A stretch of 60,298 nt of DNA from Chiloscyllium plagiosum. Lineage: Eukaryota. The DNA lies in contig NC_057751.1 in assembly GCF_004010195.1 (NCBI RefSeq), positions 19,306,300 to 19,366,597 of the forward strand, given 5' to 3'. Shown here in pieces: positions 556-56,937 of the stretch. A program made the translations under genes and the position numbers. Position 1 is the stretch's first letter, and every line of letters begins with the position of its first letter. Below the pieces are notes generated by a model. It was not told where the DNA came from, searched no databases, and worked only from the letters and a program-made list of their open reading frames with translations.

Positions 556-675
556 CAGAGGTCACATGACACCAGGTTATAGTCAAACAAGTGCCCTGAC
601 AAAGGGGCAGCGCTCTGAAAGCTTGTGATTTTAAATAAACATGTTGGGCTATAACCTGGTGTTATGTCACTTCTG
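556..675. mobile_element. Penelope-associated short fold-back repeat with degenerate hammerhead core
   Basis: Imperfect inverted arms 556-589 and 642-675 flank ctgacaaaggggcagcgctctgaaagctt (596-624). Same family as 55054-55142. Confidence 0.55.
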
Positions 676-1646
676 AGACTATTCCTAAAAGAACAGCATA
701 ATAGGAGGGTGTTGAAGGGGCTTTGTCAGTGGCATTCGAACTCTGAAAATGGAGACTTTCGTTATGTGCAAATGCTGCAGTATTGTGCGCCTGTGCAGGT
801 AGCATAGTTTCAAACTAAAAGTTCTGGTTTACTCATGCGTTTTGCAGTTCATGTCAAGCCCTTAATTCAACTCTGATACAAATGATGTACGTAAAATGTA
901 AGCTGGAAGCCTGTAGAGCTTAATGCTATCTCACTTATCACTTCAATCACTGCCATGTCATTGAAGTCAGGAAGTTGCATATTTGCAGTCCCTGATTGTG
1001 TCTCAGAATTATCCCAAAACATTTTGCTTGCAATGAGTTTGTTCAAAAGGCAGTCACAGCAGTACCCATTTCACGTACAATGTTGTCCCAGAGCCAGCAA
1101 GGAGGTGGCTACGTAATCTCTCTTTTTAAATGCTGCGAGTTGAGGAATTGAATTGAATTGACTCGAATTTGTTGTCATGTGTACCAAGGCACAGTGGAAA
1201 GCTTTGTCTTGCGAGCAGTACAGGCAGATCACAGAGTTAAGTAGCATAGGTAAACAGCAAAACAAAAACACAGGTACAGGTGAATGTTTGAGTCCATTCA
1301 GTATTCTAACAACAGTAAGGTAGAAGTTGTTTTGAAACCGGCTGGTGCGTGTGTTCAGGCTTCTGTACCTTCTCCCCGGTGGTAGAGATTGTAGAAAAAC
1401 GTTGCCAGGGTGGGATGGATCTTTGAGAATGCTGGCGGCCTTTCATTGACAGAGGGCCTGGTAGATGGATTCTATAGATGAGAGGTTGGCCTTTGTGATT
1501 GTCCCGGCCGAGTTCACCACTCTCTGTAACCGTCTCTGATCTTGAATGGTACAGTTGCCATACCAGGTAGTGATACATCCAGACAGAATGCTCTCGATGG
1601 CACATCTATAAAAGTTGGCAAGAGTATTCACCGTCATGCCAAATTT

Positions 1647-2144
1647 TTGTGGTTCTGTTCGCTGAGCTGGGAATTTGTTACGGACGTTTCGTCCCCTGTC
1701 TAGGGGACATCCTCAGTGCTTGGGAGCCTCCTGTGAAGCGCTTCTGTGGTGTTTCTGTGTGTTTTTGCATGAGCAAAACCAATGTAATGTACAAAATCCC
1801 ATGCAAGGACTGCACAAAACACTACATAGGACAAACAGGAAGACAGCTAACGATCCGTATCCATGAACACCAACTAGCCACGAAACGACATGNNNNNNNN
1901 NNNNNNNNNNNNNNNNNNNNNNNNNNNNNNNNNNNNCGGACAGCTGGAACTGACAACCGGAAGCAGCAGAGACAAACCACTATAAATGCCAAAGGAAACA
2001 ACACAGGAACACTTCTCAGGAGGCTCCCAAGCACTGAGGATGTCACCTAGACAGGGGACGAAACATCTGCAACACAAATTCCCAGCTCGGCGAACAGAAC
2101 CACAACAACGAGCACCCGAGCTACAAGTCTTCTCTCAAACTTTG
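1647..2144 (+). mobile_element. Penelope-like element fragment (GIY-YIG) with inverted terminal repeats and 14-bp TSD
   Basis: KTNVMYKIPCKDCTKHYIGQTGR. TSD gtcatgccaaattt at 1633-1646 and 2145-2158. Hammerhead cores at 1683-1716 (-) and 2034-2067 (+). Contains the N gap. Confidence 0.85.
1893..1936. other. assembly gap (44 N)
   Basis: Run of n in the sequence. Confidence 1.
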
Positions 2145-4128
2145 GTCATGCCAAATTTCCTCAGCTGCCTGAGGAAGAAGAGACATTGTTGGGCCTTTGT
2201 AACCAGGAAGCTTGTTGTGGCTGACCACTCCCAGGAGCTTGACACTCCCCATTCGTTCTACCTCTGTGCTGTTAATGTGTGTGGGGGGGAAGGGGGGGCT
2301 GACTAACATCCTGCCGAAAGTCAATAATGAGATCCTTGGTTTTTCCAGCATTGAGAGCTAGGTTGTTCTCAGTGCACCATTTTTCCCGGTCTTCCACCTC
2401 CCGTCTATAGTCTGTCTCATCGCCATCTGAGATTCGACTGACTATGGTGGTGTCATCAGTGAACTTGCAAATGGCATTAGTCTGGTATTTGGTGATGCAG
2501 TGATGGGTATACAGTGAGTACAGTAGGGGGCTGAGTACGCACTCCTGGGGGGCTCCAGTGTTGAGTGTTAGTGAGGATGAAATATTATCCCCAATCTTCA
2601 CTGGTTGTGGCCTGTGGGTCAGGAAACTGAGGATCCAGTTGCAGAGAGTGAGGCTTAATCTGAGATCACTAAGTTTAGTAATCAGTCTCGAGGGGATAAT
2701 AGTGTTGAAGGTTGAACTGTAGTCAATGAGTAGGATTCTTACGCAGCTGTTCTTGGTGTCAAGATATTCTAGGGAGGAGTTCAGGGCAAGTGATATGGCA
2801 TCTGACTTGAATCTGTTGGTCCGATAGGCAAATTGGAGTGGGTCAAGAGTAGTGGGCAGGCTGGAGTTGATTAATGCCATGACCAGCCTTTCAAAGCACT
2901 TCATGACCACTGAAGCTAGGGCCACTGGGCGGTAGTCATTGAGACATGCTACATGAGCTGCCTTAGGCACAGGGATGATGATGGCCCTCTTGGAACAGGC
3001 AGGGACAGTGGCCCTGCCGCAGGGAGAGGTTGAAGATGTCCGAGAAGACCTCTGTCAGTTGATCTGAGCATGCTCTGAGTGCACGGCCTGGTACTCTGTC
3101 TGGTCCCATCGTTTTCCTTGGATTCACATGAAGGAAAACTGATCTGATCTCTGATTCAGTGACTGTTGGGATAAGTTAGTCAGGACCTGTCAGAATAGGT
3201 GTTACCCCTCCGCCGAAATTCTGCTCAAAGCGAAGGCATTGAGATGACCTGGGAGGGATGTGTCATCGTTTGCTATCTTGCACTGTCTCTTTTTAGAACC
3301 TGTGATGTCATTCAGGCCTTGCCATAGTCGCTGGGTGTCTGTTTTTGTCTCTAGTTTGGATCGGTACTGGTCCTTGGCTGTCTTAATGGCTCTGTGAAGG
3401 AATGAACGTTAGCCAGGATGTCAGAACAACTTTGAATCCTCCTTTTTTAAAAAAAAATACACCATTTAAAATTTTCAACATTCATCAGAACAAATTGAAC
3501 TATCCTATCTATCTCATTCATCTATTTTTGAATTTTCTGTATTTTTGATTGTGGACTGAAATGGGAAAAGACTGGTTTAAAACCAAACCGTTGTGGAAAG
3601 GATTGCTGCACTTTTTAAAAATGAGAAGGAAGTTACTGAAGCACTATTTACACAGATGTTTATTCAAGCAGTGGGAGAAATCTAATTACAGACAAGCTGG
3701 ATATGTGTACAAATGGAAACTTGGCCAGCAAAAAGTAGCTGATTGCTCGGGGGAATGGGGACCTGTTGTTGATGACAAAGACTTGCTGCCTGCCAACAAC
3801 TATGTGATTGGTTCCTAGGTAGCTCAACAGCTTGTGGCTGTGAATATTGGCACTAGAAGCCATCAGACCTCTGGAAAGGAAGACACTGTCCTTTCTCCAC
3901 AGTAAAACACATCCAGCCTGATGACAGCCAGTTTACTTCCCTTCTCAGTTTCTGTAAGCTGTGGCCCTTAACAATAAATCAGACACTTTCTAAGTTGCTT
4001 TTTGCCTCCTGTGAGCCTGGGGAAGGTAGGTTGAGGAACAGGAAGTCTTGATGAGCAAAAGAGGATCATTTCAGCAAACCCTTTTGGACAGTGACCATTG
4101 AACTGCCTGTTCAGTCTTTCCCACTACC

Positions 4129-4132
<4 letters not shown>

Positions 4133-4170
<38 letters not shown>
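4133..4170. repeat. (GT)19 microsatellite
   Basis: Read directly. Confidence 0.95.
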
Positions 4171-4172
<2 letters not shown>

Positions 4173-8483: not shown

Positions 8484-8489
8484 AATAAA
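8484..8489 (+). terminator. candidate STAT2 poly(A) signal (alternative candidate at 12799-12804)
   Basis: AATAAA followed by GT/T-rich sequence. Cannot be verified without RNA data. Confidence 0.25.
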
Positions 8490-13869: not shown

Positions 13870-14126
13870 TTCTGGATTAGTGATGCTGGAAGAGCACAGC
13901 AGTTCAGGCAGCATCTGAGGAGCAGTAAAATTGACGTTTTGGGCAAAAGCCCTTCATCAGGTATTCCTGATGAAGGGCTTTTGGCTGAAATGTCGAATTT
14001 ATTTTATTTTATTTTTGTTTTTTTGTTTTTTTTAACTGCTCCTCGGATGCTGCCTGAACTGCTGTGCTCTTCCAGCACCACTAATCCAGAATCTGGTTTC
14101 CAGCATCTGCAGTCATTGTTTTTACC
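13870..14126. mobile_element. head-to-head fold-back of the Penelope terminal repeat with two degenerate hammerhead cores
   Basis: Arms 13870-13961 and 13966-14091 centred on cttcatcaggtattcctgatgaag. TSD atacacaata(g/t)agt at 13856-13869 and 14127-14140. Confidence 0.8.
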
Positions 14127-18129: not shown

Positions 18130-20306
18130 CTGGAAAAGTGAGCACACTGTCAGAGTACACACTGGTCTCAAACTCCTCTGCCCCAATTTGGCTTGGTTTC
18201 AAAATGATTTTATTAATAATGCTCCATTCAAACTGCTTGTAACATTTTGCTACATTAAAGGCACTAATGTAATTTTGATTTTGCAATGAAATTCAATGCA
18301 ATGGAGACTTTAAATATAACATTAACATTATGTATTTGTGGTGGGACACAGCAAATGGAAGCAGTGAGGCAGTAGTTTGCTTGCACTATTTACATCTAGT
18401 TTGTGCTGTTGAACAGTAAGGCTGAGCTGAAATCAGGCATTTCCTGATAAAAGGAGAGGAGAATATGGAAACAGTCCTCTGTTTCACATGCCTATTTTGA
18501 GCCCTGATAACATTTGAACAGATGTAAATGCCAGCCTGTTTACCTTCCATCTTGGTCAGATTGTGGATCGAGGAGGGCTCATGTTTGGCAAGACCTCAGG
18601 CCTGTAATATAATCTCTGACAGACACACAATTGGTCCATCCCATCCCATCAAGCTTGTGCCAGCTGAGTGCACAACTCCAGATTCTCCTGCCATATTGAC
18701 TACAAATTGGATGGCTGACGGGGTGGAGCAGCCAAAAGAGAGAGTAATGTAGAATGCAAACAAAAGATGCCAACATGAAAGTGTTTTTACTGAGAAACAG
18801 GACTGAAATTCACCTTCAGCCCAATTGTTATACAGCCTGGTGGATTTTCCATTCTGGGCAATGAAATGAGCTCTGTGGCAGTGGTCCTGATCACAGCACT
18901 TCTATGCACCAGTGCAACTGAGTGCAGGTCAGGAACTACCTTACCCTCTTCAGCCCATCCAAGCCGAGCACTTCCACTTAGCAGAGGAAAGGCAGATCGA
19001 CATGTATGTATAAAATATAGGAGCAGAATTAGGCCATTCGGCCCTTTGAGTCCACTCCACCATTCGATCATGGCTGATGCATTTCTCAACCTCATTCTCC
19101 TGCCTTCTCCCTGTAGCTCCTGATACATCTTATTAATCAAGAGCTTATCTATCTCTGTCTTAAAGACACCTAATGTCTTGGCCACAACAACCTTCTGTGG
19201 CAATGGGTTCCACAGGTTCCCCACCCTCATTGAAGAAATTCCTTCTCCTCTCTGTTCTAAAGGGTTGTCCCATCACTTGGAGGCTGTGCCCTCTGGTCCC
19301 AGTCTCTCCTTAATGGAAACATTTTCTCCACATCCACATTCTCCAGGCCAGCAGTATTCTGTACAATGTCAATGACATCCTCCCCTCATCCTGTTATCCT
19401 CTATCAAATGCAGACCCAGAGTCCTCAACTGCTCCTCATCTGACAAGCTCTTCATCCCCAGGAATATCCTTGCAAACGCCCTCTGGACCCCCCCTCCAAC
19501 ATTCATCCTTAAATACGGAGCCCAAAACAGCTCACAATATTCCAAATGCAGTCTGACCAGAGCCTTATACATCCTCAGCAGTACAACTCTGCTCTTATAT
19601 CTAACCCTCTTGAAATGAATGCTAACATTGCAATTACCTTCCCAAATGCCAACTGAACTTGCATGTTAACCTTTAAGAGAATCCTGAACTAGGACTCAAG
19701 TCCCTTTGTGCTTCAGATTTCCAAAGTCTTTCACCATTTAGAAAATGGTCTCCACCTCTATTCTTCCAAAATACAGAATACGTTCCCTCTTTGTATTCCA
19801 TCTGCCACTTCTTTGTCCACTCTACAAGCCTGTCCAAGTCCTTCTGCAGCCTCATCGTTTCCTCAACACTACCTGTCCCTCCACCTATTTGTCATCTGCA
19901 AACTTAGCAACAGTGCCCAAAGTTCCTTTGTCCAGATCATTAACGTATCATGTAAATAGATGGGATCCTAACACTGACTCCTGTTGACCTCTACTGGTCA
20001 CCCGCTTTCATTCCCCACTCCCTGCTTTCTGCCAGTCAGCCAATCCTCTGTCTATGCCAATATCTTGCCTCTAACACCATGGGCTCTTCTCTTATTTAGG
20101 AGCCTCCTATGTGGCAGCTTGTCAAAGCTGGAAATCCAAATAGATCACATCCACTGGCTCTCCTTTGTCGAACTTGCGTGTTACCTCCTCAGAGAATTCT
20201 AACAGATTTGTCAGGCATGACCTTCCCATGATGAAGCCATGCTGACTCTGCCTTATTTTACCATCCACTTCCAAGTACTCCACAATCTTGTCCTTAATAA
20301 TAGACT

Positions 20307-20811
20307 GAAAATGTGTTGCTGGAAAAGCGCAGCAGGTCAGGCAGCATCCAAGGAGCAGGAGAATCGACGTTTTGGGCATGAGCCCATCTTCAGGACCTCG
20401 ACACGGTCTTGTCCCCCTTAGTCCAAGAACTCCCCACCTACGTTCGGGACACCACCCACGCCCTCCACCTCCTCCATGATTTTCGCTTCCTCGGTCCCCA
20501 ACGCCTTATCTTCACCATGGACATCCAGTCCCTGTACACCTCCATCCCCCATCACGAAGGACTCAAAGCCCTCCGCTTCTTCCTTTCCCGCCGTACCGAC
20601 CAGTACCCTTCCACTGACACCCTCCTTCGACTGACTGAACTGGTCCTCACCCTGAACAACTTCTCTTTCGAATCCTCCCACTTAAAAGCCTGAAGAAGGG
20701 CTCATGCCCGAAACATCGATTCCCCTGTTCCTTGGATGCTGCCTGACCTGCTGCGCTTTTCCAGCAACACATTTTCAGCTCTGATCTCCAGCATCTGCGG
20801 TCCTCACTTTC
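20307..20811 (+). mobile_element. Penelope-like insert: inverted terminal repeat, RT fragment, then terminal repeat; 16-bp TSD
   Basis: PLE RT PTYVRDTTH...FTMDIQSLYTSIPH. TSD tccttaataatagact at 20291-20306 and 20812-20827. Hammerhead core at 20690-20717. Confidence 0.88.
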
Positions 20812-21150
20812 TCCTTAATAATAGACTCTCAAATCTTACCAATGACCAAGGTCAGCCTAACCAGCCTATAGTTACCTATCTTCTGCCTCCCTCCCTTCTT
20901 AAACAGGGATGTTACATTTGCAATTTTCTAGTCCTCTGGTACCCTCCCTTACTCCAGTGATTCCTGAAAGATCACCACAAATGCCTCCACAATTTCCTCA
21001 GCTATCTCCTTCAGAACTCTGGGGAATAGTCCATTTGGTCTGGGTGATTTATCCACCTTCAGACCTTTCAGCTTCCTCAGCACCTTCTCTTTAGTAATGG
21101 CCACTCCATTAATCACTGCCTCCCGACCCTCTTGACGTTTTGGTATGCTA

Positions 21151-21240
21151 CTGAAGAAGGGCTTATGCCCGAAACGTCGATTCTCCTGTTCCCTAGATGC
21201 TGCCTGACCTGCTGCGCTTTTCCAGCAACACATTTTCAGC
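21151..21240 (+). mobile_element. 90-nt hammerhead-headed mini-insert
   Basis: Starts CTGAAGA-AGGGC-ttat-GCCC-GAAAC-GTC (21151-21178). Flanked by tatgcta(ctg) duplication at 21144 and 21241. Confidence 0.8.
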
Positions 21241-21787: not shown

Positions 21788-22227
21788 TCCAAAAAACTAG
21801 CCACCAGGATACACAAACACCAACTAGCCACCAAAAGACATGACCAGCTATCATTAGTATCCTTACACACAGACAAAGAAGGATACTGCTTCGACTGGGA
21901 CAATACATTCATCCAGGGACAGCCTAAACAGAGACACACATGGGAAGGCCTAGAGGCCTGGCATTCAAACCAGAACTCCATCAATAAGCACATTGATTTG
22001 GACCCCATTTACCAACTCCGAAAAAGAACCCGAAATGATACCATCCACCTTAACAAACCAAGACACATAAATAGAAAGTGAAACGGTACACCAGTGCTTC
22101 AATGGAGGCTCACTGATGGTGTTACCTGGCATGGTGACGAAACATCTGAGAAGAAACCTACCGGCTCAGCGAGCAAATTTACAAACTGATCCTCAACCTG
22201 AGCTACAAACCTTCTCAAAAAATCGCA
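21788..22227 (+). mobile_element. Penelope-like 3' fragment with terminal repeat
   Basis: KLATRIHKHQLATKRHD. Variant hammerhead core at 22113-22146, with ctca/tgag stem I. Confidence 0.8.
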
Positions 22228-22646: not shown

Positions 22647-22771
22647 AGGAGAAAGTGAGGACTGCAGATGCTGGAGATCAGAGTTGAAACGTGTGGCACT
22701 GGAAAAGCGCAGTAGGTCAGGCAGCATCCAAAGAGCAGGAGAGTCGACGTTTCAGGCATAAGCCCTTCATC
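22647..22771 (-). mobile_element. Penelope terminal-repeat copy, truncated within the hammerhead core
   Basis: Matches the reverse complement of 20692-20811. Confidence 0.75.
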
Positions 22772-22930
22772 GCCTGGCCCTGCATGTCTATTTTATTTAC
22801 TTAGTTCTTTATTTGTTTTTTTAAAAAATTCTGCAAGTATTATGGTTCATAACCTGTAATTATTTCTCTCATGTCCCTTCAATAGGAAGGTAATTTATAA
22901 TTGATAGTCAAATTAGCAGCTCTTACTTAC

Positions 22931-22992
22931 CTGCGCAGTGCAGCTATGTCACCACTATATGCAGCAAAGAGCAAGTTCACCACTGATTCCTC
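22931..22992 (-). CDS. GLS2: glutaminase exon 15: EESVVNLLFAAYSGDIAALR(R)
   Basis: 62 bp, ccag| and |gtaag. VVNLLFAAYSGD is the GLS2 state. Confidence 0.93.
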
Positions 22993-24028: not shown

Positions 24029-26140
24029 TGTAATGAGGTCAGCCAGGTGGTCATCATAGAATATGAGTTCCCTAATTAACAGCCCCAATCTGATCCAATA
24101 AGGGAGCTCTGGCTGACACATAAATGGGTGTGTCAGGAGTTTTGTTCACTGAGAGAGCTGGCTCTGAAGAAGCTGGATCAGTGTCAAGCACTCTCCCCGT
24201 GTAAATAAAGGATGACTTGGTAACAGGATACCAGCTTATGTGGAATTATTTCAGAGATAACAAGAGGAGGATTAATGATTTAACCCTGCAAAAGCGCCTA
24301 CTAGCTGAAGGCCAACTGGACATGAAAACTGGCATTATCATCGGAAAATTCAGCAAGTGGAGCATACAAGTTACAGGGTATTCCAATGGAAGTCCTGAAG
24401 AAGGGCTTATGCCCGAAACGTCGATTCTCCTGTTCCCTGGATGCTGCCTGACCTGCTGCACTTTTCCAGCAACACATTTTCAATTCCAATGGAAGTGGAC
24501 ACCAATCTGACTGGGCTTGGGGGACACCACTTGAGTGAAGGCAATCACTCAGGACATGTGCTGAACAGAGGGGCTCTAGGTCAGCCCACAGCAAAACCCA
24601 AAACAAAGCCACACTCCAGCCAAGTGATTAAAATCTTCTTCAGGGTCCAGGCCAACTCGAGATGGCAAAAGAGTAACAGAACTTATCGGCTGGTATCCAG
24701 CAGAGTGCATACCCTGGAAAGTCCGCTTAAATCCGGTTTGAAACAGTTAAATAAATGTCTGGTTAAATGGTCACCTGGTTCTAAAGGAGGCCAATACCGG
24801 CGTGGCAGTTTCAGTGATCACAGAACAAAATTTGCTCTGGACCTCAACCCTTAAGTTTGTGCAAGACCTCGGCTAGACTGAGAACCTGTACTGGGAACCT
24901 TACAGATTAAGGGGGCAACTTTGATTCCAGTCTCTTGTGAGAAGCAGCTGGTGCAGTTACCATTGATTGTGGTAAAAGGCTTGGGCCCAAGCCCGATGGG
25001 GCAAAATTGGTTGAGAAAGATTCACAGAGATTAACTCAACATTTTTGGTTAGGAAATGGCTGCCTGAGTGAAGTCTGAATTAAATACCTGTAAGTTTTTC
25101 AGAAATGTCTAGACACTATCAAAGGAGCCAAAGCCACCTAGCATGTTGACCAAGAAACAATTGCATGATTCTGCAAGGCCCGCCCAGTGCCATTTGCCCT
25201 ATGGGCAAAAGTAGAGGCATAAATCAGGAGCCTGGAAAGGGAGGGAATCGTCAGACCAGTCCAGTTTGCGGAATGGGCAGCACCGGGCGTACTGATTGTG
25301 AAGCCCGATGGGTCAGTTCCCCTTTGTGGAGATTTTAAACAAAAGGTAAACTGCTTTGCATAGTTGGATAAATATCCAATCCCTCGCATAGAGGATTTAC
25401 ATGCAACACTGGCATGGAGGCTGTCCTTCATGAAGCTGGACATGAGTGTACTTGCAATTGCAGTTACCTGAGGATTCCCAGAAGAATGCTTCTATTAATA
25501 CCCATAAGAGTTTGTACCAATATACCAAACTGCCACTTGGGGTATCGTTAGCCTGTGCAATTTTTCAGCGGATAATGGAGAACGTTTTACAAGGTCTACC
25601 CCAAGCCAGCCTTGGAAAGGGTCGCTTGGCCAAGCCAGAGCTTTCAGGGAAGTGAAGAAACAGCTATCATCCTCTAAGGTGTCAGCACACTGTGATCCCA
25701 AGCAAGATTTGGTACTGATATGTGATGCCTCCCCATACGGCATCGGGGTAGTATTAGCTCAGAGGTGGCCTAATGGAGAGGAATGCCCAACAGTGTATGC
25801 ATCCCGGACTTTGGCTAACACAGAGTGTAAATGTGCTCAGATAGAGAAGGAAGGTTTAGCAGTCATATTTGGAGTCAGGAAGTTCACCAATACTTTTACA
25901 AACGTAAATTTGTAATATTTAAAGGACCACAAACCCCTGCTAGATGTACTTAAAGAGGACAAGGCAGTGCTGCCCATAGCTTCAGGCTGCATTCAGCGGT
26001 GGGCTTTAATACTAAGTGCATTTAATTAAAAGTTGAAACACTGTCCAAAAGGCCAAGTAGCAAATGTGGATGCATTGAGCTGCCTCCCACTGGCAAATGC
26101 ACCTCTGGTGGTACTGTGACTGGAAGATCCGTAATGGATT
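24029..26140 (+). mobile_element. decayed Gypsy LTR retrotransposon (putative LTR 24029-24253, TG...CA; gag/pol remnants)
   Basis: RT EWAAP...KPDGSVPLCGDFK...YPIPRIEDL; RNase H CDASPYGIGVVL...YASRTL...QIEKEGLAVIFGVRKF. Confidence 0.85.
24394..24482 (+). mobile_element. 89-nt hammerhead-headed mini-insert with 14-bp TSD
   Basis: TSD attccaatggaagt at 24380-24393 and 24483-24496. Core CTGAAGA-AGGGC-ttat-GCCC-GAAAC-GTC at 24395-24422. Confidence 0.85.
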
Positions 26141-26278: not shown

Positions 26279-26410
26279 CTGACAGAAATCGATACCTCTC
26301 ACACTATTTCCAACTTTGTCCAAGGCAGGAGACCAACACATGATGCCCATCACATTGGGCACTACCAGCAGAACACCACCAGAAACACCAGATTTTGCTG
26401 GAAGGCCAAC
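26279..26410 (-). CDS. GLS2: glutaminase exon 13: [44 protein letters not shown]
   Basis: 132 bp, cag| and |gtaag; PAKSGV motif. Confidence 0.96.
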
Positions 26411-28289
26411 CTGCACACACACAAGAAAACGTATGTGACAAACACCAAAGACAATAGACAAATCATTAATGCCATGTTGTTAGGCCACATCTTCCAGCTG
26501 GATAATAAACTCACATATGAGACACCAACTAAATAGCTTTACTCTACTGGGTAGGAGAAGCCACAACATGAAAAAGCTGCTGGAGAGTTTCAGGAACTGG
26601 AAATAATTTCAGCCACAGTTTGGTTTGGTTGGCAAAATCTGATTCATGCTGGTCAATGTTCCTGGCCTCATCTGAGCTTTGCTGATTGTAGCCAGGATGG
26701 ATGGTAAGGAGAGTGCCAAATGGTCTCAGTGCCTGAGCTAAGGAGTGGAAAAAAGTGCTGCTGCAGTTACTGCTTTTAAGTGCTGCCCAGTGGCTCCTAT
26801 CCCCTTGTTGCAAAATATGCCTGAATAGATGTTGGGTAAAGCCTGAACCGAGCTTGCCTAGAAAGCTCCTGCCCCCATTGATGGTCCCCCCAGCCAGATA
26901 GCTAGGTAATCACGATCGACATTCAAATATGAATGAAAGATACTATGGAATAAAATCCCTGCTGAAACAAAACCTGAACAAGAAAATTTGGCAAAAAATG
27001 TAAATAGCTTAATGTGTCATTGGCTGGTGCGAATGAATGTAGAAACTCTGTGGAAACACAGAGTTATGAAAGTATTAGGAAAAAAAAGACTTGTTGAAAG
27101 CTCTCTTAATCTGACCAATTTCAAAAACTTTACTTAGACTGATAATGAGATACTGATGAGTACTTAGAGAACAAAGTTACTTTGGCAAAATGAATTAAAG
27201 ACAGATCTTAAAAGTGATTCTGCACTGCATGATAACTCTACTGGTCTATTTTTCTTTTTCTGAGACTTTATACCCTACTACTGTATATGGTTACTGTCAG
27301 GGGCCTGTATACCATCACAAGTGATCTCTTGCCTTATCATTTCTCATCTCCACCCAAATGTTTCCACATCATGGTTTCCTTAGCTCACCCTCTCTATTGA
27401 GCCAGTAGAAATAGTGAACTGAACAATGTAATTGTTCTTTTTTTGTTCCTTAGCTCTAGCCAAATCAAATCTGACCTCAATCTTTCTGAGACATTCTTTT
27501 TCCTCCAGCAGTGCAATGCTTTCCTGGTCATTACTACCACACTTTTGTGCATTCCTATCTTTCCTGAACAACTTCAAGAAAATTCAGACCCAGTCCTGAC
27601 CTTCCTTGAGCCAGGTCTCTGATGTAACCTCAACATTATGTTTCTACATGGCAATCTGTGTCTGTGGGATTTGCCAATCTTATTAATTTTACTCTTTCAT
27701 TCTTGCGTTGCCTCCTGCTTTTGCAGATAAATGTGTAACTGATATGGAAGACACTTTCCAGTTGGAACTGCAAAATAACTATCAGAATTGGCTGGTTTTC
27801 CACTTACAGATCAGAAGTGCTGAAGCCAATTGTCCTGCTGGCAACAGCTCCCAACTAAGATCTCTCAATTTTCTGAATTCAGCACAGATTGAATGGGTCC
27901 TTTACGGTCTCTCAGATTCACAATGGGGGGTTTTTAGAAATTATTCTCAGCCATCGTCGGGCTCAGGATCAGCATTGCAATGGCAGTACTCATCTTCACT
28001 CAAAATTGTGTCTTATTGACATACATTCATTTGTAGGTTCCAACTGCCCAAAAACATGTGATCTCACCAATTGATATTACTATTATTTATGACTTAACTG
28101 AACAGTCTTTGTAACATCACTTATTTTAGCAATTTAAAACTCACCACTCATCGCTCGTGTAACTGCATATAGGCAAATAGCAATTAATGACTTTGTAACC
28201 AACTTCTTTGTTTATAATCAAAAAGATTAGAAGGACCACAGAAAGGGTTAATTTATTCACACACTCGTGAGGCTCCCGATGGGAGTTTC

Positions 28290-28682: not shown

Positions 28683-28821
28683 CGGATAAAAGCAAGTTAC
28701 TGCAGATGCTGGAATCTGAAACCAAAAGAGAAAATGCTGGAAAATCTCAGCAGGTCTGGCAGCATCTGTAAGGAGAGAAAAGAGCTGATGTTTCGCGTCT
28801 AACTGACCCTTTGTCAAAGCC
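28683..28821 (-). mobile_element. Penelope terminal-repeat variant with divergent hammerhead core; 9-bp TSD
   Basis: - strand reads ttgacaaagggtcagttagacgcgaaacatc. TSD aatattatc at 28674-28682 and 28822-28830. Confidence 0.65.
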
Positions 28822-28894: not shown

Positions 28895-31505
28895 CACTGC
28901 CTCCTGCCGGCCGACTGTCACCTACAGGATGAGCAGCAGGCTGGTAAGGGAACGTGGAAACTGAACACTAAGCTGTTGACCCTGGGAAACATTGAGGAGC
29001 TCAAGAGTGATTACGCAGGTTGGACAACCATGAAGCCCCTCTTTGAGTCCCCAGCGGACTGGTGGGAAACAGTAAAAGGGAACATCAAGAGGTTCTTCAT
29101 CCTCAAAGGTGTTCAGGAGGCGAGAGAGAGGCGGGGAAAACTGTCCCAGCTCCAGGGAAGTATGCAGACTGCAGACGATGGGGGTGGATGTCACGGAGGA
29201 CCTCCAGGAGGTGAAGGGTCAGCAAGCCTCGCTCTTTGCTTCGGAGGCCTCCAAGATAATCTTCCGGTCCAGGGTCCGCTCGATGGAGCAGGACGAGACA
29301 TGCTCACTTTTCTTCTTCCAGAAGGTGCACAAAGAGAGCTCCATGCTCAGCAGCCTGAAGGAAGAAGATGGCTCGGTAACGTCATCTCAGGCTATCTCTG
29401 GACGAGCTGACCAAGGCCCTCGAGTCCTTCGAAAAGAATAAAACTCCCGGAAGCGACGGCTTACCGGTTGAGCTCTATTCTGCTCTGTGGGACTTGATTG
29501 GCCAGGACCTACTGGAGGTGTATGTCAGTATGCTTCGGGCAGGTACCATGAGTGAATCCATGAGGAAAGGCATCATCCCCCTCATCTACAAGCAGAAGGG
29601 GGAGAGGGAGGAAATTAGAAATTGGAGACCAATCTCACTGTTAAACACAAACTACAAAATCTTGTCAAAGGTCATCGCCAACCGGGTCAGGTCTGCTCTG
29701 GGGTCGGTGATCCACTCTGACCAAACCTGTGCTGTACCGGGCAGGAAGATCGCTGAGAGTCTCGCACTCCTCCGAGATACGATTGCCTACGTGCAGGACA
29801 GGGGGGTGGACACCTGCCTCATCAGCCTGGACCAGGAGAAAGTCTTTGACAGGATATCGCATACATATATGAGGGATGTCCTCTCCAAAATGGGCTTCGG
29901 GGAGGGAATCGCTAATTGGATCAGACTGCTCTACACCAACATTGTCAGTGCAGGTTAAAGCCTCCCTGTACATGGATGACGTCGCCGTTTTCTGCTCGGA
30001 TCCGCTGTCCGTGCACAGACTCATGTGCATCTGTGACCAGTTCGAGCGGGCCTCGGGGGCCAAGGTAAACTGAGGCAAGAGCGAGGCCATGCTCTTCGGG
30101 AACTGGGCCGACCAATCCTCTAGCCCCTTCACTGTCAGGACCGACCACCTGAAGGTGCTGGGTATTTGGTTCGGTGGGGCTGGGGAAATGGCCAAGACCT
30201 GAGAGGAGCGGATCAGGAAGATGAGACAGAAACTGAGCAGATGGGAGCAACGGTCGCTCTCCATCGCCGGGAAAAACCTGGTCATCAGGTGTGAGGTACT
30301 CTCAGTATTGTTATACGTGGCACAGGTCTGGCCTATCCCCAGAACCTGTGCCACCGCAGTCACCCGGGCCATCTTCCACTTCATGTGGAGATCAAAGATG
30401 GACCGGGTCCGAAGGGACACAATGTAAAAGACCTGTATAAAGAACGGGGGAAAAATACACCCAATGCCACCCTCACCCTGATGGCCACCTTTGTGTGTGG
30501 CTGCATCAAGCTGTGCGTGGATCCCCGGTACGCAAACACCAAGTGTCACTACGTACTGAGGTTCTACCTGTCCCCGGTGTTGCGAAGGATGGGCCTCGCC
30601 TCGCCGCCGCGGAACACTCCGAGTGGTTGGACCGTTCCATACCACCTGTCCTTTGTGGAGAAATTTATGAAGAAAAACACCTTTGACCACAAGTCCATCA
30701 GGAAGTGGTCAGCACGTAGTGTCCTTGAGACCCTTCGGGAAAAGGAGAGGGCGGATCCTATCGAGTGGTTCCCTGAGCAGACTGTCAAAGCCATTTGGCA
30801 GAATGCCTCATCGCCAGAACTTCCCAACAAGCACCAAGACATGGCTTGGCTGGTGGTGAGAAGGGCTCTGCCTGTGAGGTCCTTTATGCACGCCCGGACT
30901 CTCTGCCGCACTGCACGCTGCCCTCGAAGCGGCTATGGGGGGTCGAGACTGTCACACACCTCCTTCTGGAATGTGCCTATGCATAGGTAGTCTGGAGAGG
31001 AATGCAGTGTTGTTTGTCAAGGTTCGTCCCGAGCAGCACCGTGACACCGGGATGCACACTGAGACGAACTTCAACTGTGCCTGGAGGATCATCAACTCGG
31101 TGAAGGACGCTCTCTGGGCGGTCCGAAACCTGTTGATCTTCCAGCTGAAGGAAGTGACCCCGACTGAGTGTTGCAGACTGGCACATTCCAAGGTCCAGGA
31201 CTACGTGTTGAGGGACGCACTGAAGCTTGGGGCAGCTGCCGCCAAGGCACGATGGGGAAAGACTGTCTTTCCCCGCCTAGGCGCGGTGTAACGTCTGCCT
31301 GCCTAAGCACAGGGGCCGACACAGTAAGGGGGCCCTGCTGACCCCCCAGCTAAATATGTGGAGTAATCGTACAGACCTGTAAATATGAATGATTACTCTG
31401 TCTCAGTATGCAAATAAATGGAATGTTTACATATGTATGGCATGACCAATTGTACAGATCATCAAAGTATTTTATGAATAAAGTATATTTTTGAAATAAA
31501 AAAAT
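28895..31505 (+). mobile_element. Tx1/L1-clade LINE, 5'-truncated, with internal deletions and a poly(A) tail
   Basis: WRPISLLNTNYKILSK, DQTCAVPGR, SLDQEKVFDRISH, LYMDD, ETVTHLLLEC. Ends aataaag...aataaaaaaa. Confidence 0.9.
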
Positions 31506-31711
31506 ATAGATAGCAGCAGTTCAAGATGTCAACTCACAATCACCCTCTCAAAAAATAATTAGGGATTAGCAACGGTTATTAACTGTTCCAGTCACACCCA
31601 CAGAGCATGAATCTGAGAAAACAGAAGTCCTTGCAAAAGTTGCAGTAATGCCATCAATTGCATAAATGGCTTCCATTAGGAGTAATCTCAGGTTATTGCA
31701 TAAATGCTTAC

Positions 31712-31888
31712 ATGGAAAGCAAATTCGCCGGAAAAATCATACATGCCACACGAGTGCATCAGGCTGAGGGTGTTCCTCACTGCCTCAGCGCTCAGGACCC
31801 GCTCTCCTGTGATTGGGCAGATTCCCCCATTGGCTAAGGTGGCAGCCATGACTCCACCTGACTCACATGTTACCTCGATCGAACACAG
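31712..31888 (-). CDS. GLS2: glutaminase exon 12: [59 protein letters not shown]
   Basis: 177 bp, cag| and |gtaag. Catalytic Tyr in GMYD. GGICP and LSAEA are GLS2 states. Confidence 0.96.
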
Positions 31889-32149
31889 CTGTAATGAGGA
31901 AAAGAAAAGGAAAACTTGTGTTGTAGAAATAAACAAATGCAAAGATTAGCAAGTAAAAAACTTAAGTGTGATTTAGACGTCCTTTGTGGAGACCATTAAT
32001 GTCAACGTTTGGTTATTGCAGAAAATTAAAGCCAGTGATAGCTAGCGACCTTTTTTGAACGATGAGGCAGTTACAACAACAGCAAAGTATTGCAGGCAAT
32101 TGGAAATGTGAAAACAGAAAATGCCAGAAACACACAGCAGGTCAGGTAG

Positions 32150-34350: not shown

Positions 34351-34845
34351 CTAGGGAGGGAAAGATAAGCAAGGGTTATTTTATTAAATATACTTCCGAG
34401 TTCCTCACATCAATAATCAAAGCTGCAGTACTAGGATTTCGGTCAAAGACCAGTTCAGTTTCCTGTCTTACTGAATGCTCACAAGCAGCATAACATTTTT
34501 AAATCAACCTGTTCAGACGTGTTATGGCACACCTTTAGAACAGGCGTGACTTGAACACCTGCCTCTCGCCCACAGATGGGGCCCGTGCAGTATAATCAAA
34601 ATGAGCTCAATTGACTTGAGCTGATTGAAGGAGAGTGCCAGATGGGTCTACTAAGGAGTAACTCTGATACGTGTTTTTGTTTTCTAACAGATTTCTGAGA
34701 TCAGCTGGCCTTTCGCCCAACAGAATAATGTTTAAAGGAGTACTTTTACATCAATACCAAGTTATTGCAGGAACACACAGTGATGGAACTGGTGTTTGAA
34801 ACCAGCCTCATTGCAGATGGGAGAGTAAAAGGTCAAGGATTCATA

Positions 34846-34977
34846 TTCCTGATGAAGGGCTTTTGCCTGAAACGTCGATTTTCCTGCTCCTCGGATGCTG
34901 CCTGACCTGCTGTGCTTTTCCAGTACCACTCTAATCTTGACTCTGATCTCCAACATCTGCAGTCCTCACTTTCGCCT
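34846..34977 (+). mobile_element. Penelope terminal repeat with canonical hammerhead core
   Basis: CTGATGA-AGGGC-tttt-GCCT-GAAAC-GTC at 34849-34876. Confidence 0.8.
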
Positions 34978-39843: not shown

Positions 39844-39987
39844 TTTTAGGTTTTAAAAATAAAATATATATTATATGAATCAAGAAGGTTTCAGGTTTAA
39901 ACTGCAGTTTCTGTTCATGTAACTCATCTCAACAGGCAGTAGGTGTAGCACTGTTGGAGTGAGGATGGAAAGAACAGAACTTCCATA

Positions 39988-40606
39988 TCCGCCACAAATT
40001 CACCTGCACTTCCACACACATCATCTACTGCATCCGCTGCACCCGATGTGGCCTCCTCTGTATTGGGGAGACAGGCCGCCTACTTGCGGAACATTTCAGA
40101 GAACACCTCTGGGACACCCGGACCAACCACCCTGTAGCCCAACACTTTAACTCCCCCTCCCACTCCACCAAGGACATGCAGGTCCTTGGACTCCTCCATC
40201 GCCAGACCACAACAACACAACGGTTGGAGGAAGAGCGCTTCATTTCCACCTGGGAACCCTCCAACCACAACGGATGAACTCAAGATTTCTCCAGTTTCCT
40301 CATTTCCCCTCCCCCCACCTTGTCTCAGTCAAATCCCTCGAATTCAGCACCACCTTCCTAACCTGCAATCTTCTTCCTGACCTCTCCGCCCCCACCCCAC
40401 TCCGGCCTATCACCCTCACCTTGACCTCCCTCCACCTATCGCATTTCCAAAGCCCCTCCCCCAAGTCCCTCCTCCCTACCTTTTATCTTAGCCTGCTGGA
40501 CACACTTTCCTCATTCCTGAAGAAGGGCTTATGCCCGAAATGTCGATTCTCCTGTTCCTTGGATGCTGCCTGACCTGCTGCGCTTTTCCAGCAACACATT
40601 TTCAGC
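39988..40606 (+). mobile_element. Penelope-like 3' fragment (GIY-YIG) joined to its terminal repeat
   Basis: FTCTSTHIIYCIRCTRCGLLCIGETGR...PVAQHFNSPSH. Hammerhead core at 40517-40544. Links the short repeat to an autonomous PLE. Confidence 0.88.
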
Positions 40607-43020: not shown

Positions 43021-43692
43021 AAGGTGTAGGTTTGCTCACTGAGGTTTGATATCCAGACGTTTCATTACCTGGCTCGGTAACATCATCAGTGGCGACCTCC
43101 AAGTGAAGCGAAGCTGTTGTCTCCTGCTTTCTATTTATATCTTTCTCTTGGATGGGGTTCCTGGGGTTTGTGGTGATGTTATTTCCTGTTCGTTTTCTGA
43201 GAGGTTGATAGATGGCATCTAGATCTATGTGTTTGTTTATGGCGTTGTGGTTGGAGTGCCAGGCCTCTAGGAATTCTCTGGCATGTCTTTGCTTAGCCTG
43301 CCCCAGGATAGATGTGATGTCCCAGTCGAAATAGTGGGTTTTTTCATGCGTGTGTAGGGCTACGAGGGAGAGAGGGTCGGGTCTTTTTGTGGCTAGCTGG
43401 TGTTCGTGTATCCTGGTGGCTAACTTTCTTCCTGTTTGTCCTACGTAGTGTTTGTGGCAATCCTTGCATGGAATTTTGTAGATGACGTTGGTTTTGTCCA
43501 TGGGATGTACTGGGTCTTTTTAAGTTTGTTAGTTTTTGTTTGAGAGTGTTGGTGGGTTTCTGTGCTACTAGGATTCTGAGGGGTCTTAGTAGTCTGGCTG
43601 TCATTTCTGAAACTTCTTTGATGTATGGTAAGGTGGTTAGGGTTTCTGGCTGTGTTTGGTCTGCTTGTCGTGGTTTGTTCTTGAGTAATTTT
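43021..43692 (-). mobile_element. Penelope-like 3' fragment with GIY-YIG endonuclease
   Basis: TLPYIKEVSE...; KTNVIYKIPCKDCHKHYVGQTGRKLATRIHEH...REFLEAW. Confidence 0.9.
43053..43092 (-). ncRNA. minimal type I hammerhead ribozyme motif
   Basis: CCA-CUGAUGA-U-GUUACC-gagcca-GGUAAU-GAAAC-GUC|UGG: complete core, 6-bp stem II, 3-bp stem I. Activity untested. Confidence 0.7.
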
Positions 43693-49048: not shown

Positions 49049-49485
49049 AAATATCTTTTCAATAAAGGCAGATTGTGGCACTATCAGTAGTTGTTATTTT
49101 AAAAAGATTGAAGCTGTAACATTTTATCAGTGTTTATCTTCAATCAGTTTATACACACAAAATATATACATGCAAGAAAACAGCTGTCATATGCACCTTT
49201 GAAATGTCCACACCTTTTATTTTCCTGACTCCATTTATGTGTAATATTCACACTCCAAGTGCTTGAAGTCACTTTTACTTTTTGTTGTCGATGACAGATG
49301 TACTGTTAGTTCTATTATTCTACAGTAAATTACACCTCTATAGCAACAGCTAATCCATAGATGAGATGAAATCTCCTTTGTGTATTTTGTTGCCAAGGGG
49401 AGATGGAACTCTGGTCCTGTATGCTCATCAATTGGGCTAAGACTAGGTGCTTATGAGAGCACTTACACGTTGCTGTGATACTCAC

Positions 49486-49649
49486 CTTCCTCGTTCAAAA
49501 AGACCTTATTGAACCGTAGTCCACTGGGCTCTTTGCCCACATACTGGTGAACATAATCAGTGTTGAACTCATTAACTGCAATGGCATACTCCAATGGCTT
49601 TATGCAGGATTGTAAACAGAAGGGGATTTTGGTGTCTCCAACAGAGTGT
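49486..49649 (-). CDS. GLS2: glutaminase exon 6: (R)[54 protein letters not shown]
   Basis: 164 bp, cag| and |gtgag. Catalytic SxxK (SCIK) and the activation loop. Confidence 0.96.
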
Positions 49650-50330
49650 CTGTGGAGAGAGGGATAAAACAAAATAACCATCTTCAGATAACTACATGAA
49701 GCAATCGGTTTTATTTTTACACACTACAAACACCATTACAACTGGTTTGGCTTTAATTCTGATTTTGCCCAGGTTCTAGTTGCAATAGTGACGTGGTAAA
49801 ATTCTTTTAGGTCAGATTGTATTCAGTGAGTCATTTTGTACCACCCAGATGATGAATAATTTAAAGAGCTTCATAACACTTGGGCACCAACAGTGCTTCA
49901 AGAATAATACCCTGCATCAGCTTCTCAAAGGCAAGGGCTGGGTTAATAAATGCTGGCCTTGCCAGGAATAACAGGAAAATTGATTTAAGTAAACACATCA
50001 ATTATGAATGCAGCCATGGACAAAGTGGTCATATATGGCATGGGTAAATTCAGTGGACTGTACCATTAACAATTCAGCTGCCCATATAGTGTTCACACAA
50101 TCCTCAAGTAGGATTCCTGTTAACCATTGTGTTTTTATTGAGGTGGTTTGAATGGGGAGACCATCCCTCTGCCAAAACTTTTCTTCTCTGAAAACAGGTC
50201 TTCAACCCTTGTTCCCCTTCCCGAGGGGATACAGCAAGAAGACTTGCTATTTACAGATAAGATATATCAGGACTGTCCCATTTGCAGTGCGATGACCTCC
50301 AGTTTATGTGATGGTGAGTTTAAAACTTAC

Positions 50331-50620: not shown

Positions 50621-50825
50621 CTTCAAAGTTTGTGCGAAGATTTGGTGCACCCGTTTGTGCTCGGGTGCTCGTTGTTGTGGTTCTGTTCGCCGAGCTGGAA
50701 GTTTTTGTTGCAAACGTTTCGTCCCCTGGCTTCACAGGAGGCTCCCAAGCACTGATGATGTCGCCTAGCCAGGGGACGAAACGTTTGCAACAAAAACTTC
50801 CAGCTCGGCGAACAGAACCACAACA
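50621..50825. mobile_element. Penelope terminal-repeat fold-back insert
   Basis: Perfect 61-bp inverted arms at 50671-50731 and 50767-50827. TSD acagtcttaaa at 50610-50620 and 50826-50836. Same family as 1647-2144. Confidence 0.85.
50749..50788 (+). ncRNA. minimal type I hammerhead ribozyme motif
   Basis: GCA-CUGAUGA-U-GUCGCCU-agcc-AGGGGAC-GAAAC-GUU|UGC. Activity untested. Confidence 0.65.
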
Positions 50826-51171
50826 ACAGTCTTAAAATGTGGAGTGGGTGTTTGTGTAACTTAGAGGATTTCAGAGCTTGAGGTCCAATTGGTTGTAGGT
50901 GAAATTGCTATGTCATAAAAGATCATAGAATTAGAGTATTCAAGAATGTAATAATAACCTGAAGTTAAATCCACAAGTAGGGAGCATTTAGCCATGATTT
51001 AGCATACCTTCTCACCATGTGGGATAATCACCTAATACCAGAACCAAATTTGATGTCAATTGATGTTGGACCCCATTGACATAAATTGTAGTCAAAATCA
51101 CCTGCTTACACTCTCCAAGGAATTCTGCAATTATCTACAACACACTGTAAATCTAATTTTTCATGCCTTAC

Positions 51172-55053: not shown

Positions 55054-55142
55054 TCAACCACCTGATAAAGGAGCAGCGCTCCGAACGCTAGTGCGTCCAA
55101 ATAAACCTGTTGGACCATAATCTGGTGTTGTGTGAGTTTTAA
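55054..55142 (+). mobile_element. Penelope-associated short repeat with degenerate hammerhead core
   Basis: cctgataaaggagcagcgctccgaacgctag...aataaacctgttggac. Confidence 0.6.
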
Positions 55143-55215
55143 CCCCATCATATTAGCATTCCATTTTCTCCTGACTCAAATCAGACTTGTGTTGAGCTGA
55201 CCTGTAAACACAGTA

Positions 55216-55510
55216 TTAGATTAGATTAGATTCCCTACAGTGTGGAAACAGGCCGTTCGGCCCAACAAGTCCACACTGACCCTCCAAAGAGTAACCCACC
55301 CAGACCCATTTCCCTCTGACTAATGCACCTAACAGTACGGTACAATTTAGCGTGGCCAATTCACCTGATCTGCATATCTTTGGACTGTAGGAGGAAACCC
55401 ACGCAGACACGGGGGAGAATGTGCAAACTCCACACAGACAGTCACCCGAGGCTGGGATTGGACCTGGGACCCTGGTGCTGGGAGGCAGCAATGCTAACCA
55501 CTGAGCCCAC
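55216..55510 (-). mobile_element. HE1-type V-SINE
   Basis: V-domain, (attag)n tail. Confidence 0.85.
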
Positions 55511-55577
55511 AAAGCAATGTGCCAATGCTGATACAGCACTGCAAATATCACACACTCGCCAATCTCGGCACTACACT

Positions 55578-55651
55578 TGGTCAGTGTGGGCACTGAATCC
55601 ATGACCTTGGCCTTATTAGCACCATGCTTTAACCATCTGAGCTAACCGACC
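55578..55651 (-). pseudogene. tRNA-Ile(AAT) pseudogene
   Basis: GGTCGGTTAGCTCAGATGGTTAAAGCATGGTGCT-AAT-AAGGCCAAGGTCATGGATTCAGTGCCCACACTGACCA. Acceptor stem pairs fully; D, anticodon and T stems have mismatches; B box is damaged. Confidence 0.75.
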
Positions 55652-56181
55652 AACGTATGTTGGTTTGAGAGTCGTGTGACCTGTTGCAATATCTAATATA
55701 CAGTAATTGTATCTGCAGTCCTTAAATGAGATGCAGACCAGCTCGCATTACTGACCTACCAATTGACTGGTAAGCCCCAAAACTCCTCCCCATCGTTCAT
55801 GACATTTTACAGCCATTGGTTGGCTCTTACTTACAATTTCTAAAAGTGTCTACACCTAAAATTTTAAAGCCGTTCAGCTCCCAAACAGTTTCTGTCTGTC
55901 TTCACTGGGGTTAGCTATGCTTTCGTTGTTAACATTTTTTTTTCTCTCAAAGCTAGTTCCTCGAATGTTTATTTTCTATCTTTCCTGCCTTAACTACACC
56001 AGGCCACTTTCTTTAGCAAGATTAAAATGTTAAAAAGCTCAAATTATTGAATTTGTATTTTTCCCTGAGCTGTTGGTGGGATTAGAGAATACAGTTTTGG
56101 GTTATCTGGAAACATTAGTCTCTTATAAAAAAAGTCTCCTTGGAAATAAAACAGAAGACTCAATGGGATAGGTTACTCATA

Positions 56182-56937
56182 GAAAAAGTGAGGACTGCAG
56201 ATGCTGGAGATCAGAGTCAAGTCTGGTGCTGGAAAAGCACAGCAGGTCAGGCAGCATCCGAGGGGCAGGAAAGTCGACGTTATGGGCAATAGCCCTTTGT
56301 CAGGAATGAGGTTTGTGAGCCAAGGGGGTGGAGAGATAAATGAGAGAGAGGTGGGGCTGGGGGGAAGATAGCTGAGAGTGCGATAGGTAGATGGAGGTAG
56401 GGGTAATGGTGATAGGCGGAGGGGAGGGTGGAGCGAATAGGTGGGAAGGAAGATGGACAAGTCATGAGGGCAGTGCTGAGTTGGAAGGTTGGATCTGGGA
56501 TGAGGTGGGGGGAGGGGAAGTGAGGAAACTGGTGAAATCCACATCGATGCCGTGTGGTTGGAGGGATGGGGTTCGAGGGCAGATGTGTGGGAAGTGGGTG
56601 AGTTGCACTGGAGGGCATCATCAATCACATGAGGGGAAATTGCAGTCTTTGAAGAAGGAGGCCATCTGGTGTGTTCTGTGGTGGAACTGGTCCTCCTGGG
56701 AGCAGATGCGGTGGAGGTGGAGGAATTGGGAAGAAGGAGGCATTTTTACAGGAGGCAGGGTGGGTGGAGGTGTAGTCCAGGTAGCTGTGGGAGTTGGTGG
56801 GTTTGTAGAAAATGTCCATGTGGAGTCGGTCACCATTGATGGACATGGAAAGGTCCAGGAAGGAGAGGGAGGTGTCCAAGATGGTCCAGGTGAACTTAAG
56901 GTCCGGGTGGAATGTGTTGGTGAAGTTGATGAACTCA
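56182..56937 (-). mobile_element. Penelope-like fragment (RT thumb plus terminal repeat)
   Basis: SFLDLSMSINGDRLHMDIFYKPTNSHSYLDYTSTHP. Degenerate hammerhead near 56275-56303. Confidence 0.85.

Follow-up and report, generated by a model that had tools for sequence, protein, structure and literature searches.

Minimal hammerhead motifs of Penelope-like elements in a 60-kb stretch of the Chiloscyllium plagiosum genome

Hammerhead motifs in the window

A 60,298-nt stretch of the Chiloscyllium plagiosum genome (contig NC_057751.1, positions 19,306,300 to 19,366,597; the whole stretch is referred to as the window) was analyzed for minimal hammerhead ribozyme motifs of Penelope-like elements (PLEs). 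An initial annotation had proposed about 15 such motifs lying across two genes. Motifs of this kind are present, and the actual tally is 18 plus one 3' half-copy (50655-50731, minus strand). All 13 positions listed in that annotation carry a family motif; the true start of the one placed at 55061 is 55062, and the values 1683 and 43056 give the lower coordinate of motifs that lie on the minus strand. As for the host context, glutaminase exons were found on the minus strand (26279-26416, 31703-31894 and 49466-49654), none of them overlapped by a motif, and a second gene was not identified.

The search descriptor comprised CUGANGA, an optional bulge, a stem II of at least 4 bp, and GAAA-XY-U-H. 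With XY required to be palindromic, it matched the window six times, compared to a mean of 0.01 (maximum 1) across 100 dinucleotide shuffles. In 200 kb of nearby DNA the descriptor gave 15 matches versus 0.07 (30 shuffles). When the palindrome requirement was dropped, there were nine matches in the window versus 0.12 per shuffle. The core is retained in 10 of the 18 motifs: six also keep the helix III palindrome (21151, 24395, 34849 and 50752, plus 1683 and 43056 on the minus strand), and four have lost it through CpG decay (2034, 13967, 20690 and 40517). The other eight carry core lesions. An Rfam covariance-model scan of the window returned no hammerhead family among eight matches at E up to 10; its microRNA matches merely reflect the hairpin at 13876-14085 and were discarded.

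The copies belong to families designated A to E. Solo family A stubs occur on the plus strand at 21151..21240 (about 90 bp, opening with the intact core 21151-21178 and having a short target-site duplication), at 24393..24482 (intact motif 24395-24422, 14-nt duplication) and at 34845..34960, the last with a tail and beginning with ATTC, the putative transcription start, ahead of the intact motif 34849-34876. A minus-strand stub at 22664..22773 is truncated within the core, C3 and U4 being absent. A head-to-head pair at 13876..14110 has motifs at 13933-13960 (minus strand, G12>A) and 13967-13994 (plus strand); the latter had been listed with the stem II GGGC/GCCC and reads GGGC/GGCU. The stretch 13930-14000 of this pair was predicted to fold into a single long hairpin (z -10.9), and both cores would therefore be sequestered. 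In three family A copies, the T run right after the cut site has grown into long T-rich tracts (window 13995-14035, and two places in loci L069-L088).

Three further family A insertions retain coding remnants of reverse transcriptase (RT) or of the GIY-YIG endonuclease. The insertion 20305..20815 consists of an inverted stub (motif 20366-20393, minus strand, G12>A), an RT fragment (20394-20687, plus strand) and a plus-strand stub (motif 20690-20717, palindrome decayed). A 294-bp internal piece of RT thus lies between two outward-facing stubs, i.e. a layout that would correspond to a template switch from a stub to the middle of the open reading frame (ORF). A plus-strand 3' fragment (39960..40606) comprises a Neptune-type GIY-YIG remnant, the 3' untranslated region (UTR) and motif 40517-40544, its palindrome decayed. 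The minus-strand fragment 56197..56950 holds an RT-thumb remnant, the 3' UTR and motif 56276-56303 (G8>A, G12>A, A13>U).

The family B insertion 1644..2134 contains an inverted pseudo-long terminal repeat (pLTR) with an intact motif (1683-1716, minus strand), a GIY-YIG fragment (about 1780-1891, plus strand, E 0.061), a gap, and a plus-strand motif with a decayed palindrome (2034-2067), 53 nt upstream of which lies a TATAAAT sequence. A second family B locus (50655..50827) is a head-to-head pair of the minus-strand half-copy and an intact plus-strand motif (50752-50785); the copy that holds this motif has its start about 23 nt upstream of CUGA. Family C is represented by two 3' fragments. The one at 21798..22216 (plus strand) carries a frameshifted GIY-YIG remnant followed by motif 22113-22146 (A9>G, palindrome decayed). 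The other, at 43030..43620 (minus strand), carries a GIY-YIG region (Pfam E 0.0039, below the cut-off), TATAAAT 50 nt upstream, and the intact motif 43056-43089, through which the endonuclease frame continues; the frames of its relatives stop at a TAG in loop II.

Family D motifs were found on the plus strand at 596..624 (stem II GGGGC/GCUCU, helix III AG-CU, G8>A), with an inverted partial partner at 555-592, and in the solo stub 55055..55140 (motif 55062-55090; G8>A and A15.1>C, read by eye). The single family E stub (28724..28817, minus strand), absent from the initial annotation, has motif 28787-28817 (C3>U, G8>A, decayed palindrome) and a 3' flank common to family A. All window copies are dispersed or inverted stubs; none is a tandem unit, and no array of hammerhead-bearing units in direct tandem (the retrozyme layout) was found in the window.

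Motif families and their parent elements

Stem II is 4-7 bp long, and the G10.1-C11.1 pair and the 9.1 bulge are kept across families. The stem II GUCCCCU/AGGGGAC proposed for several copies applies to 1683 only; an A.G or G.G mismatch at pair 4 is normal in family B. Positions 15.2-16.2 form a loopless palindrome, CG in families A, B, C and E and GC in family D. The helix III AC-GU of the earlier description is therefore right for the first four; the GGAGC/GCUCC family (D) has GAAAG-CUH, i.e. AG-CU. This was seen in 19 of 19 sampled family D copies, found with a search pattern allowing C or G only at that place, and in about 93 of the first 100 matches listed when both bases were left free (counted by eye). 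The proposal that the core is held constant while the stems are swapped holds among the family masters; since only six of the 18 window motifs have both core and palindrome intact, core constancy is a feature of the masters and not of each copy.

Helix I was absent from the search pattern and was scored in 87 classified copies (four unclassified rows excluded). Its first two pairs form in 72 of the 87. The two strands pair within families at rates of 0.90 (A), 0.91 (B), 0.81 (D) and 0.60 (C, five copies), compared to 0.00-0.05 across A, B/C and D. The strands of B and C are swappable at two pairs, not at three. Pairing in family E is weak (0.32; five copies, several truncated). Helix I is thus family-specific and 2-4 bp long; most family A copies have a U.U mismatch at its pair 3, and subfamily A3 has the full 4 bp. 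At the sequence level, this pattern is covariation among the family masters. The motifs are almost certainly minimal type I hammerheads of PLEs, and they were confirmed to belong to a known kind, the minimal hammerheads in PLE pLTRs. In predicted monomer folds stem II forms, three of the five pair the CUGAUGA strand with the palindrome, and folding z-scores are weak (-1.0 to -1.8).

The proposed link to PLEs was borne out by RT or GIY-YIG remnants directly upstream of six window copies: GIY-YIG remnants with a CCHH motif lie 230-480 nt upstream of motifs 2034, 22113, 40517 and 43089, and motifs 20690 and 56303 have RT remnants upstream. Outside the window, locus L145 has a single frame of 415 residues that encodes both RT and GIY-YIG and ends within loop II of a family C motif (RVT_1, E 2.6e-8; GIY-YIG, only E 0.032). 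Since Pfam GIY-YIG matches were below the cut-off, this assignment in families A-D rests on motifs. A CX4CxxC linker and CCHH are present in A and D, and B and C are without the linker. By the motif criteria accessible in PMC8557442, A and D appear Neptune-like, and B and C Penelope/Poseidon-like. Family D was connected to its coding region by colinear upstream DNA in three loci. The "at least three Penelope families" originally suggested thus become families A-D, from two PLE clades, and a fifth family, E, for which no ORF was found.

Inverted copies make up 77 of 172 in family A, whose 3' ends lie near 88 and 125 nt, ~37 nt apart; target-site duplications are 8-16 nt long. In sequence organization, the inverted 5' copies, two 3' ends and variable duplications agree with the layout described for PLEs. 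The A9-U-G10.1 bases of B and C make up an ATG that opens a similar frame in both families, stop-free over 23 codons in 25 of 27 B copies and 21 of 26 C copies; A and D have no ATG at the stem II start. The family C protein had no match among solved structures. Frames of 800-2,400 residues in targeted stretches were rejected as giant ORFs, being runs of N.

In the whole genome (3.56 Gb), the generic core pattern gave 225,481 matches compared to 6,449 for its reversed control, and each family has the catalytic base as its majority base at all catalytic positions. A single family A 28-mer occurs exactly 33,157 times, the B/C pattern 20,111 times and the D pattern 3,454 times, each with zero occurrences of its reversed control. 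An unselected sample of 1.41 Mb (24 blocks of 50 kb in addition to the window and an adjacent 200 kb) contained 91 core matches versus one in the control, and 89 of the 91 were assignable by eye to families A-E. The genome carries about 220,000 intact-looking motifs, mostly in short stubs.

5' ends of the copies, U6 fusions and copy decay

The 5' ends of family A copies were counted from 257 anchor matches, of which 51 not reaching past -8 (copies resembling family E, or very short stubs) were dropped. Among the 206 ends left, 88 lie 26-35 nt upstream of the predicted cut, 50 at 1-25 nt, 21 at 36-99 nt and 28 further away; 16 are just downstream of the cut and three at the cut. Copies beginning at the cut site were rejected as a class, given these three of 206, one of them really family E. 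Family D ends pile up at 28-37 nt. Among the matches listed, the flanks of piled-up copies were unrelated or were inverted partners, and therefore the pile-up does not represent a missing subfamily.

Many of these ends are preceded by an extra G. Counted by eye in the first 100 matches listed, a G precedes the A of the ATTCC start in 69 (A1) and 54 (A3) cases. Family D copies starting at ACAACCAC have a preceding G in 58 of the first 100 matches listed, and 21 of the rest are long copies with a C-to-T change. A control start inside the core gave 20 of the first 100 matches listed (Fisher p versus this control 3e-12 for A1, 1e-6 for A3 and 5e-8 for D), and about 27% would be expected from base composition. 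A jump to the cleaved GAUUC end as the source of the G was rejected on the evidence of A3 and D; A3 cannot donate a G in this way because its 3' product begins GAAUC. A separate observation is that 13 of the first 100 A3 matches listed share a 10-nt upstream context, which suggests that one inverted structure was amplified again.

TATAAAT lies at a fixed distance upstream of CUGA, 53 nt in B, 50 nt in C and 38-40 nt in D; in the last family, this places it 32 nt upstream of the G-marked base. TCATTCC, which resembles the initiator consensus, is present in family A. TATA and initiator motifs have been described in rotifer Penelope pLTRs (PMC3846280), and Drosophila Penelope has an internal TATA-less promoter (PMC2377424). 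An extra G at full-length L1 junctions has been read as cap copying (PMC11702581). Anole Poseidon shows an internal RT start, an uncut template, protein-assisted cleavage and an ORF beginning at stem II (PMC11167929).

We consider it likely that the stubs are run-off copies of the capped, uncut front end of the element RNA. The transcription start would lie 4 nt upstream of CUGA in family A and 8 nt upstream of it in family D. RT would prime at the target nick, begin internally 60-100 nt downstream of the cut (the short end or the tail end) and run to the cap, copying it as G. The outcome would be solo stubs of 90-130 bp or, on fold-back, head-to-head pairs.

A second footprint came from U6 small nuclear RNA copies. 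An Rfam search gave 48 U6 matches; after six clustered matches, taken as real U6 genes, were excluded and three overlapping ones merged, 40 stretches were examined. In four of the 40 (L270, L287, L297 and L303), the 3' T run is joined to family A position 1.1, the first base past the predicted cut, in distinct subfamily tails. In one inverted arm of L299, U6 is joined at family B position 1.1, and the other arm has diverged. Two U6 copies join inside the endonuclease coding region, and none of the 40 joins the inferred start. This pattern is opposite to that of template jumping from common cDNA ends, because ordinary copies end 88 times in the start region and three times at the cut. The fusions fit ligation of the U6 cyclic phosphate to a 5'-OH end (PMC6789731).

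Some cleavage probably takes place in vivo, for which the U6 junctions at position 1.1 are indirect evidence. In the predicted monomer folds the core is paired with the palindrome of helix III, so the default state of the ribozyme is likely inactive, and it would be switched on by dimerization or an element protein; dimeric cleavage is the published model for minimal hammerheads (PMC4209133). The cap would be lost on cleavage, as would the start codon in B and C, and the resulting 5'-OH RNA would rarely be copied, yet would be ligatable, e.g. to U6. That cleavage acts as a translation off-switch is a tentative suggestion.

Several observations weigh against this interpretation as a whole. Families B and C are without a clear 5'-end pile-up (22 copies each), and TATAAAT is missing from family A (0/65). 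The by-eye listings of preceding G include inverted junctions; with 16 perfect fold-backs set aside, A1 gives 53 of 84. There was no G excess in 43 solo copies with all start positions pooled (10/43), and a clear extra G was absent from all 10 copies that have a target-site duplication. The U6 junctions are few (5/40), and their exact position is blurred over 1-2 nt by the T run. Of the 40 U6 copies, about 15 (L275, L276, L280, L285, L288-L295, L298, L306 and L307) join a tRNA-like short interspersed element (SINE), at or near its 5' end, so U6 fusions also arise without a ribozyme; the same SINE forms window repeat families D2/D5. In RNA run X21, 1,574 reads on both strands showed no start or end pile-up, with intronic repeat copies as a confounder, and run X22 gave zero reads; X1 and X4, the other two of the four runs, consist of contigs. 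No endonuclease was linked to family E among 23 copies. Finally, no intact full-length unit (two direct pLTRs and one ORF) was recovered among 20 targeted 10-kb stretches, which are gap-interrupted, because the long frames were assembly gaps.

The decay of the copies was followed in 110 copies of family A that were located through the 3' flank and matched the motif within nine changes. Differences affect 0-10% of copies at non-CpG core bases, as at flank bases, 15-30% at CpG positions and 17% at G12; the core is kept in 66 of the 110 copies and the palindrome too in 43. Most window copies cannot be functional ribozymes, because they are decayed, often form head-to-head hairpins and are never in tandem. 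The window motifs are mostly dead, ordinary stubs, with no sign of a host-gene role.

A few other features were recorded. A short exon-like frame at ~22900-22970 (minus strand), near 22950, is presumably the C-terminal ankyrin part of glutaminase, and a second glutaminase locus lies on C7. Other retroelement remnants comprise RVT_1 at 2272-3054 (minus strand, E 8e-23), an LTR-type RNase H-like RT domain at 25508-25915 (plus strand), and RVT_1 with zf-RVT at 29380-30990 (plus strand). A tRNA match at 55578-55651 (minus strand; 33.4 bits, gathering threshold 29) may be a pseudogene or a SINE head. At L271:107-190 (minus strand), U6 is followed by a few bases and then by tRNA-like sequence, which we take to resemble tRNA-Lys.

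Alternative explanations and relation to known systems

It is conceivable, but improbable, that the PLE folds are kept for protein binding, as a promoter or as a start codon, do not cleave in vivo, and that the U6 junctions are template jumps at a structured pause. Such folds would explain why metazoan minimal hammerheads are weakly active in vitro (PMC4209133), why no RNA sequencing ends were seen at the site and cleavage was unneeded for in vitro insertion (PMC11167929), and why Naiads thrive without hammerheads (PMC8557442). Only three of 206 copies start at the cut, and the stem overlaps coding frames in B and C. However, in all families, which span two clades, the catalytic bases remain the majority, and helices I, II and III covary; the core was part of the search pattern, but flank-anchored family A copies show the same majority. 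Moreover, U6 joins the cut five times and the far commoner start-site end not once. An equally unlikely proposal is that the 5'-end pile-up marks a block of reverse transcription by the fold, or endonuclease cutting at the upstream ATT, the G being untemplated or due to microhomology. The anole Poseidon endonuclease favors ATT near the ORF-pLTR junction, non-templated G and T also occur at R2 junctions (PMC11167929 and PMC13000458, respectively), the 5' ends spread across about 10 nt, and the solo copies have no G excess. What a block or nick of this kind leaves unexplained is that the G is position-specific, being found in 20 of the first 100 matches listed for the start inside the core. It also recurs in family D, where there is no ATT and TATAAAT lies 32 nt upstream of the marked base, and in A3, whose 3' product GAAUC is unable to donate it by a jump.

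That the genomic copies act as ribozymes which cut or regulate the glutaminase pre-mRNA is very unlikely. Six window copies are intact, one of which (43056-43089) lies on the glutaminase strand between mapped exons; against this, family A copies lose core bases about as fast as flank bases, the monomers lack helix III and are predicted to misfold, and head-to-head pairs form hairpins. Chance matches amplified inside a repeat would agree with the missing Rfam hammerhead match (at E up to 10), the weak monomer z-scores and the fact that many copies could stem from one master. This origin has a negligible probability, as five families share the core at the published PLE place with unrelated stems, flanks unrelated except between A and E, and family-specific helix I pairing. 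In our view, the motifs are minimal type I hammerheads in the pLTRs of at least four PLE families, and the window copies, mostly decayed stubs, are likely copies of capped, uncut 5'-end RNA.

The motifs share with the minimal hammerheads of metazoan PLE pLTRs (PMC4209133; Cervera and De la Pena 2014) the core, the 9/10.1 bulge, G10.1-C11.1, the palindromic 15.2-16.2 and a short helix I, as well as several families per genome, mostly single motifs and close opposite-strand pairs. The accessible part of that report names no cartilaginous fish and does not describe start-site or U6 footprints; stem II in the present families is 4-7 bp. The roughly 219,000 excess core matches here compare to about 4,000 in coelacanth and 9,000 in Xenopus, a rough comparison because the descriptors differ. 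Families B and C resemble Poseidon PAc of Anolis carolinensis (Frangieh et al. 2024, PMC11167929) in having an ATG at the stem II start, two 3' ends (the tail) and uncut RNA as the main template, with the cut 28 nt after the ATG compared to 26 nt in PAc. No RNA sequencing ends at the cut were reported for PAc in the part of that study available, whereas the genomic U6 junctions here point to in vivo cleavage. Unlike PAc, A and D are Neptune-like, without an ATG at the stem II start. With the Neptune clade (Craig et al. 2021, PMC8557442) they share the CX4CxxC linker, the CCHH GIY-YIG, inverted 5'-truncated copies and a 30-40-bp tail; the Neptune label rests on motifs, and they may instead be Nematis, which has a reduced linker.

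The U6/L1 chimeras that RtcB produces by ligation (PMC6789731; Moldovan et al. 2019) likewise have the U6 T run joined to a retroelement and need a 5'-OH, as hammerhead cleavage yields; unlike their variable truncation, the junction here is one fixed bond predicted from the ribozyme. Non-LTR retrozymes (PMC7229834; bioRxiv 10.64898/2026.07.22.740005), for which a PLE origin has been proposed and one chondrichthyan surveyed, also contain abundant type I hammerheads, but in direct tandem repeats with a canonical helix III, in contrast to the dispersed or inverted stubs of the window. At L032/L033 (G000:C1:17711314 and 17711669), a direct pair of family D units at a spacing of 355 nt forms, together with an inverted copy, a dimer-competent, retrozyme-like arrangement; the mean retrozyme unit is 363 bp in one chondrichthyan (bioRxiv 10.64898/2026.07.22.740005). 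In the titles and passages that our literature search brought up, there was no prior description of these families or of U6-PLE fusions, although one may exist in Repbase or Dfam, in subscription journals, or in the supplements to PMC4209133 and the 2026 preprint.

The genome may, as a tentative reading, be a fossil record of the PLE RNA cycle, in which cap-marked run-off copies by the hundreds of thousands would map the transcription start to a few bases ahead of the ribozyme, and U6 fusions at the scissile bond in two clades would reveal germ-line cleavage. Loss of the cap, and in Poseidon-type elements of the start codon, would then serve as a protein-triggered switch by which translation of the element RNA is ended. 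Whether the weak minimal hammerheads of animal PLEs cut in vivo, and for what purpose, is left open in the available parts of PMC4209133, PMC8557442 and PMC11167929. The present analysis adds scale and two footprints, the 5'-end G and the U6 junctions. The approximately 220,000 intact cores form a very large natural data set, above the 126,247 canonical type I motifs of axolotl (PMC7229834), and the exact predicted start and cut sites, with rare U6 fusions as a read-out of cleavage, make this question testable.

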